From Escherichia phage HP3.2: DNA of 64,000 nucleotides. The notes under the pieces are model-generated. The model was not told where the DNA came from and ran no database searches. It saw nothing but the letters and a program-made list of their open reading frames with translations. A program made the translations under genes and the position numbers. Positions 174 through 45,385 of the stretch are shown here, in pieces (position 1 is the first letter of the stretch; every line of letters begins with the position of its first letter). The stretch lies in sequence record OP978391.1. One strand, 5' to 3'.

Positions 174-536
174 TTAAAAGAATTTAAACTTTTTCTTTGA
201 CCTTTTATTAAATGCATCTTGTAGTTGCATTGTAATACATTTTTCTACATGAGGAGCTAACTCAGCTTTTCTTTCTTGGTCAAGAACAGCAAAGTCCATT
301 ACGACTTTTCCATCAACCCAATCTAATTTTGTCACATACACAATGTGTGTAGAACCATCTTCTAGTTTAATGACAATCTCCTGGATAACATTTTCCATAG
401 CGGATTTAATTATCTTAAGAGACTCATTAAAAAGACGTTCTTTTCTTTCTTCTTCCCCCTCCGAAGAGGGGGATTCATCGATAATTTCTAGATCTAAGTC
501 TAAATCATCTTTATTCATTAAATTCTTCCATATCAC
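174..536 (-). CDS. 40: gp40 head vertex assembly chaperone-like protein (120 aa)
   Basis: ORF between gene 41 start and uvsX, T4 order 41-40-uvsX; acidic N-terminus; called by position. Confidence 0.55.
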   Translation of the reverse strand: MIWKNLMNKDDLDLDLEIIDESPSSEGEEERKERLFNESLKIIKSAMENVIQEIVIKLEDGSTHIVYVTKLDWVDGKVVMDFAVLDQERKAELAPHVEKCITMQLQDAFNKRSKKKFKFF

Positions 537-1692
537 TTAACTGTTCGAGGTCAGTTTCTAAATCAGCAGCTGATTTACTTTTACTTTCTGGAGATTTAAA
601 TTTTTCAACCTTTGAGTTAATCAATTCATCAACTTCAGCTTCAACAATTTCATTACTATCAATAGCACCTAACTGATAAGCACGTTTAATAGCATCTCGG
701 AATGGTTGATGCTTAAATAAAGGACCCCAGAATGTAGTGCAGTTAGTATCTTTTGCACGCCAAGATTTTTCTTCGCGAATCATCTCGCCGGTTTCTTCGT
801 CAAGAAATTCACGAGCATACCAACCATTCTTAGGTTTTACTACAAATCCTAATTCTAGAGCCATATCTAACAATCCAGAATAAGGATCGATACCACCGTC
901 AAATTTAACATCAATAAAGAATTTACTTTTTTCTTTAACGGTACGAGATTTTTCTACATTTAGAACAAATTGATACCCCTGAAGATCAGAACCATCTTTA
1001 ATCTGACGCTTACCGATAATGAATACGGTATCAGCCGAATACATTACGCCTGTACCACCTGTCATCACGGTTTTACTAAACATTTCAATTGTTTCAATTG
1101 TATGGTTAACCGCAACGCATGGAATATTTTTAATGCTAAAATAAGGAGTAACGATACGGAATAATGACTTCAGTGATTTAGCACGAGTCATATCTGCCAC
1201 AGATTTTTCATTCAAGGCATCTTCAGTTTCTTTCTTAGAAGCCATATTACCAATTGAATCGATGAATACAATAACTTTTTCACCACGCTCAATAGCTTCA
1301 AGCTGATTCACCATATCAATTTTCAGCTGTTCAACTGATTGAATTGGCGTATGAATTACACGTTCCGGGTCAACTCCCATGGATCGCAAATAAGCTGGAG
1401 TAATACCAAATTCGCTATCATAGAATAGACAAACCGCGTCAGGATATTTGTTCAAATATGCCGCAACCATAGTCAAAGACATATTTGATTTAAAGTGTTT
1501 AGAAGGCCCTGCAAAAATAGTTAAACCAGACTGCATACCGCCATCAATCGCACCAGAAATAGCGATATTAAGCATTGGAATTTTTGTACGAATTACATCC
1601 TTTTCATTAAAGAATTTAGATGTAGTCAGTTCAGCAGTCATTTTAGAAGTGGAAGCTTTAATCAAACGGGATTTTAAATCTGCAATAGACAT
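511..1692 (-). CDS. uvsX: UvsX RecA-like recombinase (393 aa)
   Basis: Length and sequence agree with T4 UvsX (ca. 391 aa); RecA-type Walker A region GPSKHFKS; acidic C-terminal tail. Confidence 0.9.
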   Translation of the reverse strand: MSIADLKSRLIKASTSKMTAELTTSKFFNEKDVIRTKIPMLNIAISGAIDGGMQSGLTIFAGPSKHFKSNMSLTMVAAYLNKYPDAVCLFYDSEFGITPAYLRSMGVDPERVIHTPIQSVEQLKIDMVNQLEAIERGEKVIVFIDSIGNMASKKETEDALNEKSVADMTRAKSLKSLFRIVTPYFSIKNIPCVAVNHTIETIEMFSKTVMTGGTGVMYSADTVFIIGKRQIKDGSDLQGYQFVLNVEKSRTVKEKSKFFIDVKFDGGIDPYSGLLDMALELGFVVKPKNGWYAREFLDEETGEMIREEKSWRAKDTNCTTFWGPLFKHQPFRDAIKRAYQLGAIDSNEIVEAEVDELINSKVEKFKSPESKSKSAADLETDLEQLSDMEEFNE

Positions 1693-1769
1693 TCATTTTT
1701 TCCATAGGCATCATTATATTTTCCTCACTGGTTAAAGATATAGTAATTATAACACAATAAATTTAGGCA

Positions 1770-2615
1770 TTAATCAACTGCTATTGGATGAATAGCATTA
1801 AACTTATGAAATGCTTCTGATTTTTCTTTACGCGAAACACACATGCGAAGAACCTTTAATGGCTCGTCTTCTTCACCCAACGATTTTCGTTTTTCAATAT
1901 TCGATGTTTTCCAACGAGCTTGCTCTGGAAACTCTCTATTGATTTGCTCAAGCGCTCTATTATGTTTAGAATTACTACGAATTGAACTACACCCACCGGG
2001 AGCGTGTGATTTTCCAGATACAACTAGATATTTGAACAAGGCCAAATGCGGATAACCTTGATTAATTAAATTGAGAAATGCATACATATCTTCGCATAAA
2101 TCAATTTTTCCATACCCAATTTGTTCTGTCGTAAGTTTTCCGAGGTCATACCATGTATTCGTGAATCCATATGAGTTTTCACGATAATTGCCCCAAGATG
2201 AAGTAATTTTAAAAATTGGTAGACGAGCATGACCGTGATAATACCCGCAATCCATGGCATCTTCAACGTATTGAATTAATTCATAGAACTGTTCACGAGT
2301 TAATTGATTAATTTTATCTACACGCCGTTTATCGTCTCTCTTTCGTATTGAACTCATACGAATAGTAGTATCATCAATCATCCAGATTCGTTGACCTGCA
2401 TACATATCAGTAATTGCTTTACGAGTACCGGCAATTCCATTAACATCATCAGGAATAGTTACAATTTTAGCTCTAGACCCATAAGCATCATAATAAGCTT
2501 TTTCTTCGTGTTCACGCACCACAATATGGGGTTCATAATCAGTCGGAAACATATTAAGGGCAGAAACTGCCCCGACACGTTGATAACTTGGAATTACGAA
2601 TTGAATCATTTCCAC
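1770..2615 (-). CDS. Hypothetical 281-aa protein at the beta-glucosyltransferase locus; candidate hmC-DNA sugar transferase
   Basis: Fills the uvsX-42 gap where T4 has beta-gt (ca. 351 aa) but does not match beta-gt in length or N-terminus; has DxD-like motifs (MIDDTT, CEDMY); function by position only. Confidence 0.45.
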   Translation of the reverse strand: MEMIQFVIPSYQRVGAVSALNMFPTDYEPHIVVREHEEKAYYDAYGSRAKIVTIPDDVNGIAGTRKAITDMYAGQRIWMIDDTTIRMSSIRKRDDKRRVDKINQLTREQFYELIQYVEDAMDCGYYHGHARLPIFKITSSWGNYRENSYGFTNTWYDLGKLTTEQIGYGKIDLCEDMYAFLNLINQGYPHLALFKYLVVSGKSHAPGGCSSIRSNSKHNRALEQINREFPEQARWKTSNIEKRKSLGEEDEPLKVLRMCVSRKEKSEAFHKFNAIHPIAVD

Positions 2616-3346
2616 TCACCTTTATAGTCTTTTTTCACAATATGAGTTTCGCCAGTATTCCACCAATGATCAACCAAATAAAAATGACGAGAATATACAT
2701 GAAGACTTCCAACATTCCATATAATAGAACCTGCTTTATACTGACGAGTTGAATCGCCTGCATTCAAATCAGATACTAATTTATCTAATACGTATTTTTG
2801 CCATGCATAATCATTACGGAATCCGAAGACCACGTCATTTGAGCGCATGCTTACTACCGCATTGACTTTCTTATCACGAATCAAGTACTGTACTGTATTA
2901 GTACACATGAAATCTGACATACCATCTTTATTGTAGTCAAACTGCATAGATGGACGAGTATAAATCATGATACCACGTCGAGAATCAGGATTTTGACCAA
3001 GTTCAGCTAAACACATATCATACTGGGCATAGTTATCTTCTGACCAAATAGCCCAACCATAATTCGAGTTAATTTCGCCTTTAGAAGATGCTACCTGCTG
3101 CCAAATCTTTGGTGTTTCACCTGGAATATCTTTAACAAACAAACTCTTAGATTTATACCATTCAAGTTCACGCTGAATGTATTCATCATTAAGAGCGCCA
3201 AAAATAAACGGTTCATCTGCTACAAATGATGCGCCAATAATTTCAATAGTTTTAACACCAGTTTTATCAACTACGAAATCTTTTTCTTTTAATGCAAGCC
3301 CCAAATGAAGACGGATTTCTTCAACTGTCATAGAGTCACTAATCAT
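2606..3346 (-). CDS. 42: dCMP hydroxymethylase gp42 (246 aa)
   Basis: 246 aa as in T4 gp42; thymidylate-synthase-like fold region; position between beta-gt locus and imm. Confidence 0.9.
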   Translation of the reverse strand: MISDSMTVEEIRLHLGLALKEKDFVVDKTGVKTIEIIGASFVADEPFIFGALNDEYIQRELEWYKSKSLFVKDIPGETPKIWQQVASSKGEINSNYGWAIWSEDNYAQYDMCLAELGQNPDSRRGIMIYTRPSMQFDYNKDGMSDFMCTNTVQYLIRDKKVNAVVSMRSNDVVFGFRNDYAWQKYVLDKLVSDLNAGDSTRQYKAGSIIWNVGSLHVYSRHFYLVDHWWNTGETHIVKKDYKGEWK

Positions 3347-4398: not shown

Positions 4399-4414
4399 AT
4401 CCGTATCAGTAGTT

Positions 4415-4480
4415 GATAGTTGTATAGTACCATGGAAGAACAGAGATGTAAACAGTTTTGTGAAAATTTTTTAGGGAATT
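4415..4480 (-). promoter_or_regulatory. T4-type early promoter
   Basis: Minus strand reads GTTTAC-17 nt-gTACTAT with AT-rich upstream region; nearly identical to the cassette at 45300-45385. Confidence 0.6.
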
Positions 4481-4540
4481 CTAAATGTCCAGAATCATCT
4501 GTTTTTCATAAGTATAGATTTATATTACTTGTATGAAAAA

Positions 4541-10898: not shown

Positions 10899-12608
10899 TT
10901 AAACCATTACAGTAAATCGACCAACTTTCTTCATTTGAAGATGCTGACCATATTCTTGCGGGTCATGGTCTTTATGCGAAATTATAAAAACATTAGTGTT
11001 TTTCATTGAATTTATAATATTAGCTACACCTTTAATACCTTCGGCATCAAATGACCCATCAAACACTTCATCAAGAATTAATGTACTAATACTAACACCA
11101 GATACGATAGAAGCAATATCACGCCAAGTAAATAAAAGAGCAATATCAATTCGTGCCTTTTCACCTTCACTAAATGAAGCATAACTAAAATCTTCACGAC
11201 CACGGGATTTAATTGTCTCATTAAATTCTTCATCTAATGTAAACACATAATCCGCTTCCATTATTTTAAGATAATGGTTAATCTGCTTATTAAATAATGG
11301 AATGTACTTTTTAATAATAGCACCTTTAATACCAGAATCTTTGAGCATATCAGTCAAAATTCCTCGGTGGTATTTTTCCATTACTAAATTAGTTTTTGTC
11401 TTAACAATTTTATCAAGTTCTTCTTGAAGCAGTGCTATTTCATCAGCATGGTCAATAAACTCGGATGATGCTTTTTCTATAGCTGCTTTAACTTTTTTAG
11501 CTTTATCTACTGTCGTGATTAGAGATTGCTTTTTATTGCGAATATCATTTGCCAACGACTGCTGGGTTTTAATATTATCTCGGTATTCATCAACAAGAAC
11601 TTTTAAATTATCACGGTGCGTTGAAAGCTGTTCAAACGAATGCGTACATTCAGAAACTTTATCTTTAATTTTAGAAACAACTTTATCACCGGAACTTAAT
11701 TGTGACAAACAGGTTGGACATAATCCACCTTCGTGATACATATTAATGACTTTATTATACGAGTCAATTTTTGATTTAATTAAAACTGCTTCTTGACCGA
11801 TTTTATTAAATGCATCAGTCGGGTCTTCATCTAAAACAATATTAACTAATCTTTCATTAGCTTCTTCTATTTCCGATTTTAGCGTTCTAGCTTCTTTTGC
11901 CAAATCATCATACATATTTTGTAGACGAGTAAGGTTGTCACCCGTTAATTTTTTCTGGCGTTCAACGTTATCATTATATATTTTAATTTGTTGGATAATA
12001 CTATCTTTTTTAACATCAAGCACTTGGTTTTGTGAATTTAATTCACGTATTAGTGCTTTATTAAGCTTATCCATTTCAGCTAATGTTCCTACCTCAAGCA
12101 GGTCTTCCACAAGCTTTCTTCGCGCAGGGGTCGACAAACCCATGAAAGGGGTATACCCTGCTGTACCAAGGACAACAATCTGCTTGAAACTGGCATATGA
12201 CATTCCGATAAGCTGTTCAAATTCTGCTTGGAAATCTTTACTGCTGGCAGATTCATTAAGACGTGTACCGTTAACGGTGATTTCGAAAACGTTTGGTTTT
12301 TGTCCTCTTTTGATATAGTACTTTTTCTCATCATATTCCATCCACAGTTCAACTAAAAGTTCTTTCTTATTTGTGCTGTTTATTAATTGACCTTTCTTAA
12401 CATCACGAAATGGTTTACCGAAAAGTCCGAAAGTAATGGCTTCTAACATCGTAGATTTACCACCGCCATTTTTACCTGTGATTAAGGTCTTTTGGACTTT
12501 ATCTAATTGGATATCGATAAAATTTTGCCCCTCGAATCCATCATCATCTTTAACGTCCATTTCGACTTCAAGCCTGAGTCCAGCATTGTTAAATTCATCT
12601 AAAGTCAT
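10899..12608 (-). CDS. 46: Recombination nuclease subunit gp46 (Rad50/SbcC-like ATPase)
   Basis: Walker A GKNGGGKST, central coiled coil with CPTC zinc hook, C-terminal ILDEVFDGSFD signature; start codon uncertain. Confidence 0.85.
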   Translation of the reverse strand: MTLDEFNNAGLRLEVEMDVKDDDGFEGQNFIDIQLDKVQKTLITGKNGGGKSTMLEAITFGLFGKPFRDVKKGQLINSTNKKELLVELWMEYDEKKYYIKRGQKPNVFEITVNGTRLNESASSKDFQAEFEQLIGMSYASFKQIVVLGTAGYTPFMGLSTPARRKLVEDLLEVGTLAEMDKLNKALIRELNSQNQVLDVKKDSIIQQIKIYNDNVERQKKLTGDNLTRLQNMYDDLAKEARTLKSEIEEANERLVNIVLDEDPTDAFNKIGQEAVLIKSKIDSYNKVINMYHEGGLCPTCLSQLSSGDKVVSKIKDKVSECTHSFEQLSTHRDNLKVLVDEYRDNIKTQQSLANDIRNKKQSLITTVDKAKKVKAAIEKASSEFIDHADEIALLQEELDKIVKTKTNLVMEKYHRGILTDMLKDSGIKGAIIKKYIPLFNKQINHYLKIMEADYVFTLDEEFNETIKSRGREDFSYASFSEGEKARIDIALLFTWRDIASIVSGVSISTLILDEVFDGSFDAEGIKGVANIINSMKNTNVFIISHKDHDPQEYGQHLQMKKVGRFTVMV

Positions 12609-13785: not shown

Positions 13786-13803
13786 AAGGGCCGAAGCCCT
13801 TTA
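13786..13803 (-). terminator. Intrinsic terminator after alpha-gt
   Basis: AAAGGGC-UUCG-GCCCUUU hairpin on minus-strand RNA. Confidence 0.55.
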
Positions 13804-15003
13804 TTTTGTAATAATGTCAAACTGTTCTTTAAAGCAGAAGCTTGAATCTTGATGCTGATACAAAAATTCATATGCTTTTTCTCGCTCACGGTCATAAAGA
13901 GCTCGGTCAGATGACAGTTCTTTAATACGCTCGAATGTTGATTCCATGCCATTTTCATCAAACCAAATGATACCGCTATCATGCGAGGTCAAAGGAGTAT
14001 TATCAACACGGAATTTTAAATTTTCGCCAGTAGATTTCCAGAAAACAGGAATTGTACCGCAAGCACCTAATTCAAGATGAGTATATTCTAGTGAGCGTTG
14101 TAAGTATTTCTGGTTAAGTTTACTCAACTGATATCCAAAGCCAGATTTACTCATTCGTTCAAGCATTTCACTATTAATATAACAATCTAGGATTTGTGCC
14201 GGTTGATTCGGCGTGAGATTCATTTTATCGATCTCACGATTACCGTAATATTCATACGGAATACCTTTTTCCTTAATTGCAATAAAAGCAGGGGAACGTT
14301 CAAGACCTTCCATTACAGTGGATTTACCAGCAGGTTTTAAGAATTTTTCGTGAAAATCAAACATCTGGTAAAAACCTTTCCATGTAGTCGTACGACCAAT
14401 CCAACGATTGATATTCATGTTAATTTCAGAAACATCTTTCCAGTAGGTTGATCGAACTTTCGCAATATCCATAGGAGGCTGAAAATTATATACTGTTGGT
14501 GCTTCTTCAATATCATCAAACAGAGAAACAGTTTCTGGATACCATTCTTTCATCAGAACTTTATTAAAATCGCCATTATCAGAATGACTAAAAATAACAT
14601 CAGCTCGACGAACAGTTTCTTCTAATCCCAAATTTCGACGCAAAGAAAGAACAGAATGATCATGCTGATAAACTACAACACGAATAGAAGGTTTAATATT
14701 ATCTAAAAGTTTTTTATAGTTATTAATCGTGGCTTCTTGAACGGAAGTAGCAGGAACAGAATTAATAATTAGAATATCACAATCATTTACCAGCTTAAGT
14801 GCTTTATCGTATTCTTTAGCTAAAATAACTGGAATTGAAAATGATTTGTGGTCATGAGAACTTGTACGAGTAAATGATTTATCTTTAGCATAAACCAAAG
14901 TTACTTCATGACCATTCTTAATAAACCAATCACGTTGCTCGAGTGAGAATTTTGTTACACCACAACCTTCAAGACCTCGAGCCATAAAAATACATACTTT
15001 CAT
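13801..15003 (-). CDS. a-gt: DNA alpha-glucosyltransferase (400 aa)
   Basis: 400 aa; N-terminus MKVCIFMARGLEGCGVTKFSLEQRDWFIKNGHEVTLVYAKD agrees with T4 alpha-gt. Confidence 0.85.
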   Translation of the reverse strand: MKVCIFMARGLEGCGVTKFSLEQRDWFIKNGHEVTLVYAKDKSFTRTSSHDHKSFSIPVILAKEYDKALKLVNDCDILIINSVPATSVQEATINNYKKLLDNIKPSIRVVVYQHDHSVLSLRRNLGLEETVRRADVIFSHSDNGDFNKVLMKEWYPETVSLFDDIEEAPTVYNFQPPMDIAKVRSTYWKDVSEINMNINRWIGRTTTWKGFYQMFDFHEKFLKPAGKSTVMEGLERSPAFIAIKEKGIPYEYYGNREIDKMNLTPNQPAQILDCYINSEMLERMSKSGFGYQLSKLNQKYLQRSLEYTHLELGACGTIPVFWKSTGENLKFRVDNTPLTSHDSGIIWFDENGMESTFERIKELSSDRALYDREREKAYEFLYQHQDSSFCFKEQFDIITK

Positions 15004-35416: not shown

Positions 35417-35629
35417 TCATTTTTGTCCTGCATTTACTTTATGCCGATGCACGGCCTTAACTTTATCAAGGTATTTTTCAAAATTTCGCAATCTAGTATA
35501 GTCTGCCGGAGATTGGTTGAGTGATACTTCTCGACGCAAAGCTGAAATGATATTTCCAACTTCCCTACGAATTTCATCTAATTGAAGAACAGTAAGATTG
35601 CGAAGTTGCTTTTCAGTTAATTGTAGCAT
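35417..35629 (-). CDS. Hypothetical protein (70 aa), rI.1-like by position
   Basis: ORF between tk and rI. Confidence 0.5.
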
Positions 35630-45299: not shown

Positions 45300-45385
45300 T
45301 CTGTATCAGTAGTTGATAGTTGTATAGTACCATGGAAGAACAGAGATGTAAACAGTTTTGTGAAAAAATTTTTAGGGAATTCTAG
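45300..45385 (-). promoter_or_regulatory. T4-type early promoter cassette
   Basis: About 75 bp nearly identical to 4401-4480, including GTTTAC (plus 45348-45353) and gTACTAT. Confidence 0.6.

Follow-up and report, generated by a model that had tools for sequence, protein, structure and literature searches.

The open reading frame between uvsX and gene 42 of Escherichia phage HP3.2 is very probably an orthologue of the beta-glucosyl-HMC-alpha-glucosyltransferase of phages T2 and T6 (ba-gt, also named ggt or TAGT), which acts after gene 42 and the alpha-glucosyltransferase gene alpha-gt. This is an already known and common gene, the second-glucose enzyme of the T2/T6 type, and by itself it adds nothing new; the remaining interest lies in a rare deletion in a catalytic-type motif, its recurrence in T6, and changes in alpha-gt. 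The HP3.2 copy has lost one aspartate of a conserved DDD motif, a loss that, judging from sequence comparisons, is likely to weaken or abolish the second glucosylation.

The gene was analysed within a 64,000-nt stretch of the HP3.2 genome (OP978391.1; referred to here as the window). The product of the open reading frame matched PHROG 842, 'beta-glucosyl-HMC-alpha-glucosyltransferase', over profile positions 3 to 269 of 270 (E = 2.3e-85), and Pfam family PF20691 (TET-associated glycosyltransferase, TAGT) with 39.6 bits against a gathering cut-off of 27.5, residues 5 to 208 aligning with positions 2 to 205 of the 205-position profile. It shared 96% identity with the proteins of T2 and T6 over the full length of 279 to 280 amino acids, was identical to HP3 gp208 (YP_010228917.1) at 279 of 280 residues, and was an exact match of WBF04525.1 from phage HP3.2. 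A contig look-up for the exact protein returned no record, and NCBIfam had no model for ba-gt or alpha-gt. The initial annotation had offered a gentiobiosyl-forming transferase of the T2/T6 type as a guess, which is borne out by the PHROG 842 match, the 96% identity to the T2/T6 enzymes, and the above-cut-off score to PF20691. Membership in the T2/T6 ba-gt family rests on sequence, synteny, and pathway context: the gene lies between gene 42 and uvsX and overlaps the gene 42 stop codon, alpha-gt and gene 42 are present, and beta-gt is absent. The intact DDD that follows the RIWM[IL] strand in the family is missing from the window, which reads IDD-TT at this point; this touches the activity of the enzyme and not its ancestry.

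The frame is on the minus strand and extends without interruption over 1770..2615 (281 amino acids from a GTG codon), flanked downstream by the recombinase gene uvsX (511..1692, minus strand; 90.5% identity to T4 UvsX; PHROG 97) and upstream by gene 42 (2606..3346, minus strand), which encodes the dCMP hydroxymethylase that makes the 5-hydroxymethylcytosine (hmC) precursor (97% identity to T4 gp42 over 245 amino acids; thymidylate-synthase-family PHROG 160). The start of ba-gt is probably not this GTG but the ATG at 2609, which gives a coding sequence of 1770..2609 (279 amino acids plus stop), because this ATG (2609-2607) overlaps the gene 42 TGA (2608-2606) as ATGA (2606..2609, minus strand). 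The ATG at 2609 also agrees with the annotated start in HP3 and with the MIQF... N terminus of the T6 protein in Swiss-Prot (Q06718), and the identical 4-nt overlap is found in the annotation of HP3, T2, and T6. The overlap suggests that translation of ba-gt may be coupled to that of gene 42. The alpha-gt gene, which makes the alpha-glucosyl-hmC acceptor for ba-gt, is full length and located at 13801..15003 on the minus strand (PHROG 2888, E = 5.6e-214; T4 AGT, PDB 1XV5, E = 4.5e-276). The initial observation, that alpha-gt and gene 42 are present and that a frame other than beta-gt occupies the uvsX-42 interval, was confirmed.

A 77-nt spacer (1693..1769, minus strand) separates the ba-gt stop codon from the uvsX start and, unlike the corresponding T4 interval, lacks segA. 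On the minus strand of this spacer, TGTTATAAT resembles an extended -10 element, and AATGCCTAA, about 11 bp upstream of TGTTATAAT, resembles a MotA box. Read by eye, the two elements would fit a uvsX middle promoter; the consensus scan did not flag them. The scan for sigma-70 promoters around ba-gt yielded 13 promoter-like sites, which is the level of shuffled sequence (10.0 ± 2.9 expected), and the terminator scan of the same region was likewise at the shuffled level, with one terminator-like site against 0.8 expected. This single terminator-like match, at 2557-2573 on the minus strand inside codons 12 to 18 of ba-gt, is a hairpin rich in GC (GGGGCAG TTT CTGCCCT) with a T-rich run after it.

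Between uvsX and gene 42, T4 has segA and the 351-amino-acid beta-gt. The initial annotation had pointed out that the 281-amino-acid frame between uvsX and gene 42 is unlike beta-gt and had proposed alignments to both T4 beta-gt and the T2/T6 enzyme. These yielded no alignment to T4 beta-gt worth the name (best BLASTP E = 4, over 35 residues, which is not significant) and a full-length alignment at 96% identity to the T2/T6 enzyme. Tblastn searches with T4 beta-gt and with the homing endonuclease T4 SegA found neither gene anywhere in the 64-kb window. The beta-gt Pfam family did not match the product, for which PF20691 was the sole Pfam match at E ≤ 1. It is vanishingly improbable that the frame encodes a diverged T4-type beta-glucosyltransferase that attaches beta-glucose directly to hmC. 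The frame does occupy the genomic slot of T4 beta-gt, but its product does not resemble T4 beta-gt in sequence, shares 96% identity with the characterised T2/T6 enzyme, and has a predicted fold of a different class, GT-A in the model versus GT-B in T4 beta-gt (PMC13216743). A diverged T4 beta-gt was ruled out as a candidate by the BLASTP result (E = 4) and the blank tblastn search over the window.

TAGT is a large and varied family of 2038 representative clusters, and some of its members are found without alpha-gt or beta-gt (PMC13216743). It might be asked, on these grounds, whether the HP3.2 product moves another sugar or uses another acceptor, for example in the manner of the arabinosyl-type enzyme of RB69-like phages. 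A change of specificity is very unlikely because the protein is 96% identical to enzymes with known products and because alpha-gt and gene 42 are both present. A different sugar specificity was rejected on the 96% identity to the characterised enzymes.

The gene was present at the DNA level in 478 records of the phage collection, 474 of which cover most of it. Most of these records come from T4-like phages of Escherichia, Shigella, Yersinia, and Salmonella, and the ba-gt name is given in many of their annotations. This number of records indicates that the frame is a real conserved gene rather than a chance open reading frame, and that the locus in HP3.2 is in its usual state and that of T4 is exceptional: ba-gt is the usual occupant of the uvsX-42 interval in Tequatrovirus, and the beta-gt of T4 is the rare one. 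A 2026 survey found that most phages combine a TAGT gene with alpha-gt or beta-gt and that alpha-gt occurs together with beta-gt in only six genomes, those of T4 and close relatives (PMC13216743). HP3.2 thus joins the majority of T4-like coliphages, which pair alpha-gt with a gentiobiose-forming transferase, and the alpha-gt plus beta-gt combination of T4 is a rarity. The initial description of a different gene at the beta-gt locus holds insofar as the gene differs from that of T4, but not as a description of an unusual state, since ba-gt is common in Tequatrovirus (478 records; PMC13216743).

The homology of the window to T4 stops four codons into uvsX on one side and, on the other, five codons short of the end of gene 42. 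Just upstream of segA in T4 (NC_000866; 4239-4263 of the locus piece compared) is a 25-nt sequence that is identical at 24 of 25 positions to the last ba-gt codons and stop. Its local score was 45, compared with a maximum of 37 in 300 shuffles. This relic suggests that ba-gt is ancestral at the locus and that beta-gt and segA were later arrivals.

The AlphaFold2 model of the HP3.2 protein is a single Rossmann-like domain of the nucleotide-sugar-binding kind with an aspartate-rich motif after a core strand, as expected of a GT-A fold. The protein is accordingly modelled as a GT-A-fold TAGT transferase of about 280 amino acids, and the folds nearest to the model are those of GT-A glycosyltransferases, including several that form beta linkages. 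At the sequence level, no PDB chain matched the ba-gt product. The present analysis shows the identity and synteny of the gene, that its partners alpha-gt and gene 42 are present, that the model has a GT-A fold, and that beta-gt is missing.

The chemistry of the pathway, and the protective role of gentiobiose, would carry over by analogy from the literature on T6, T2, and the Durham-collection phages. The product of gene 42 would supply hydroxymethyl-dCMP, leading to hmC in the phage DNA; alpha-gt would then add an alpha-linked glucose to hmC in the DNA, and ba-gt would transfer a second glucose from UDP-glucose onto the first in beta-1,6 linkage, yielding gentiobiosyl-hmC. The ba-gt gene would be cotranscribed with gene 42, with translation of the two probably coupled via the ATGA overlap. 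In T2 and T6, alpha-gt glucosylates hmC and a second enzyme adds the beta-1,6-linked glucose to give gentiobiosyl-hmC, with gentiobiosyl-modified cytosines accounting for 5% in T2 and 72% in T6 (PMC11078745, PMC13390438, PMC13216743). Deletion of ba-gt from T6 eliminated gentiobiosyl-hmC, left alpha-glucosyl-hmC alone, and allowed the Brig1 glycosylase to act on the DNA in vitro (PMC11078745). The BapA deglucosylase is another enzyme that gentiobiosyl DNA resists (bioRxiv 10.64898/2026.02.25.707755). Durham-collection Tequatroviruses with alpha-gt and TAGT contain hmC, alpha-glucosyl, and gentiobiosyl cytosines in a ratio of about 1:2:2 (PMC13390438). One of the Durham phages, EL, was among the DNA matches to ba-gt, and about 40% gentiobiosyl cytosine has been reported for it (PMC13390438).

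The HP3.2 gene differs from that of HP3 in the tract that encodes the aspartate-rich motif. Where the relatives have (GAT)3, encoding DDD, HP3.2 has (GAT)2, encoding D79-D80 (2370..2375, minus strand), with a 3-nt gap versus HP3 at window position 2376 that turns ...RIWMIDDDTT... into ...RIWMIDDTT.... In the secondary structure of the model, the DD site comes directly after a predicted strand at residues 74-78 (RIWMI). In GT-A enzymes, this is the position of the DXD motif, to which the metal and the nucleotide sugar bind. HP3, T2, and T6 (Q06718) have DDD, as do all 12 of the homologues compared, down to 33% identity, and 142 of the 151 representatives taken from the wider family; the others have DDN (four), EDD (two), DDL, DDA, or HDD.

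The two-aspartate allele was very rare among phage genomes. Among 50,697 phage records, a 40-nt query spanning the DD junction matched T6 AP018814 and its RefSeq copy and no others; the DDD-junction query matched 152 phage records. The 477 records that matched the region were sampled at even spacing, and all 59 full-length matches in the sample carried the 3-nt-longer allele. Degenerate DD-junction patterns had no matches in IMG/VR, JGI metagenome contigs, or GTDB genomes; the DDD-junction pattern had four matches in IMG/VR and five in metagenome contigs. Phage EL also has the 3-nt-longer allele (an 849-nt match to the 846-nt query). DD versus DDD was considered as the cause of the difference in gentiobiose between T2 (5%) and T6 (72%) and was rejected, as the T6 clone of 1993 has DDD, and EL, at about 40%, has the longer allele.

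The same GAT deletion was found in ba-gt of one T6 stock, AP018814, and its RefSeq copy NC_054907 (4135-4974 of the locus piece compared). Another T6 record, MH550421, has DDD but carries a CAG-to-TAG amber mutation at codon 10 of ba-gt and is annotated with a shortened, 261-amino-acid 'ggt' (2138-2980 of the locus piece compared). A reconstructed T6 protein with both DDD and Q10 is exactly Q06718 (CAA48667), the product of the T6 gene cloned in 1993, which indicates that both lesions in the modern T6 genes are derived. The RefSeq T6 'TAGT' protein YP_010067197.1 is the deleted allele. This protein served as the reference for homologue searches (PMC13216743); the family reference thus bears the same deletion as HP3.2.

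These distributions bear on whether the DD enzyme works. Slippage in the GAT tract should be easy, the shorter allele appears not to be tolerated in nature, and it has been seen on laboratory passage, which together argue for a functional cost of losing the aspartate. Thus, from the comparisons above, DD is probably a hypomorphic or null allele. The alternative that the DD enzyme is fully active, with HP3.2 making gentiobiosyl-hmC at the level of its relatives, as the initial annotation inferred, and the codon loss being a neutral slippage polymorphism, is rather less than an even prospect. In its favour, the deletion preserves the reading frame and leaves the remainder of the protein as in HP3; the third aspartate is naturally missing in a few members of the family; and a DD record, the RefSeq one, exists for T6, the classic phage of high gentiobiose content. 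However, the original T6 clone has DDD, so that DD in T6 arose during laboratory passage, and DD was absent from all of the environmental and natural-isolate sequences searched, in which a neutral variant at a mutational hot spot would be expected. The model was confident through the motif (block pLDDT of 94 to 96 over residues 61-80), but AlphaFold confidence says nothing about catalysis. If the DD enzyme is indeed attenuated, HP3.2 DNA would contain mostly alpha-glucosyl-hmC and free hmC and would not be T6-like.

Over the 64-kb window, which is 99.8 to 99.99% identical to HP3, only five mutational events distinguished the two phages, and two of these were in the two transferase genes. The events were the 3-nt deletion in ba-gt (2376), the alpha-gt substitution D352G (codon 13948-13950, minus strand; base 13949), single-base differences at 35431 and 49735, and a recombinant-looking patch at 12399-12600. 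D352G distinguishes the HP3.2 alpha-gt from those of HP3, T4, and T6, and no exact 61-nt match to the G352 allele was found among 361 phage records. The derivation of HP3.2 from the HP3 line is inferred from its name and its near identity to HP3; a literature search yielded no account of the origin of HP3.2, which goes unmentioned in the papers on HP3 and HP3.1, and the paper on the evolution of HP3.1 is silent on glucosyltransferases.

Two further features of the window were noted. At the junction of genes 47 and 46 (12399-12608), 24 substitutions and two indels of a single base separate HP3.2 from HP3, and about 420 nt are deleted, which removes the small open reading frames between the two genes; the first ∼21 codons of gene 46 are replaced by the N terminus of an upstream small open reading frame (MTLDEFNNAGL...). 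The contiguous gene 47/46 junction of HP3.2 was found in no other phage record. A noncoding direct repeat of about 82 nt is present at 4403-4483 and 45303-45384, with one mismatch and one single-base indel between the copies. One of the two lies immediately upstream of the DNA polymerase gene, and a T6 record marks a 40-nt 'attL' at the equivalent place.

The concentration of changes in transferase genes raises the question of selection. Two of the five events between HP3.2 and HP3 (P = 0.0096, post hoc binomial, 64 kb) and three of the five events between AP018814 and MH550421 over the 56 kb compared (P = 4.6e-4, post hoc binomial), namely, the two ba-gt lesions and alpha-gt V320A in MH550421, fell in transferase genes. 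It is possible, though on balance unlikely, that glucosylation genes come under selection during laboratory evolution or passage and that the aspartate deletion and D352G in HP3.2 and the parallel changes in T6 are adaptive, lowering or altering glucosylation. A possible driver would be escape from a glucose-directed defence of the propagation host. Defences that read glucosyl-hmC do exist (GmrSD, BrxU, and Brig1), and the mutations of phages that escape Brig1 map to alpha-gt (PMC11078745, PMC13216743, PMC13390438). However, the statistics are post hoc and come from partial genome comparisons, the literature offered no paper on the origin of HP3.2, and loss of glucose would open the DNA to McrBC-type restriction. 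Furthermore, four T2 records share one identical ba-gt protein sequence. A related proposal can be made only tentatively: slippage in (GAT)3 might be a recurrent and reversible way of turning down the second glucosylation, having arisen independently in an HP3 descendant and a T6 stock, and perhaps selected together with alpha-gt missense changes where hosts penalise heavy glucosylation through defence or metabolism.

The sugar pattern on hmC decides the sensitivity of phage DNA to GmrSD- and BrxU-type restriction, Brig1-type glycosylases, restriction enzymes, and CRISPR, and phages of the HP3 family are candidates for therapy. The deleted aspartate makes gene content alone an unsafe guide to the modification state of HP3.2. 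The initial annotation is supported as to the identity of the gene, but the modification pattern that it implied is not guaranteed for HP3.2, in which one aspartate of DDD has been lost.

Among the closest known systems is HP3, where ba-gt likewise lies between gene 42 and uvsX but has DDD, and where alpha-gt has D352 rather than G352. The ba-gt genes of T2 and T6 (ba-gt, ggt, or g-gt; Swiss-Prot Q06718 for T6) resemble the HP3.2 gene in locus position, in the ATGA overlap, and in having alpha-gt and gene 42 as partners. The HP3.2 protein has 279 amino acids rather than 280, due to the deletion of one aspartate of DDD, a deletion shared with T6 stock AP018814 but not with the 1993 T6 clone or T2. 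T4 beta-gt (PDB 1JG7) has the same slot, and both enzymes are UDP-glucose-dependent, modify DNA, and form a beta linkage. However, T4 beta-gt is unrelated in sequence, has a GT-B fold and 351 amino acids, and lies beside segA, and its acceptor is hmC itself, whereas that of ba-gt would be alpha-glucosyl-hmC.

A hydrophobic strand followed by DDD is the hallmark of the PF20691 TAGT family, the whole 205-position profile of which is matched by the HP3.2 protein. The family's namesakes adjoin a TET/JBP dioxygenase, whereas ba-gt in the window belongs to the T-even hmC pathway that starts from gene 42 (PMC13216743, PMC13390438). By analogy with T2 and T6, the acceptor of ba-gt would be a sugar already on the base, unlike that of the namesakes (PMC13216743, PMC13390438). 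Also among the related systems are GT-A-fold enzymes such as AvpGT, a beta-1,3-glucosyltransferase (9jma), TarS (5tze), TarP (6h1j), and SpsA (1h7l), which are only 7 to 14% identical to ba-gt and none of which acts on DNA.
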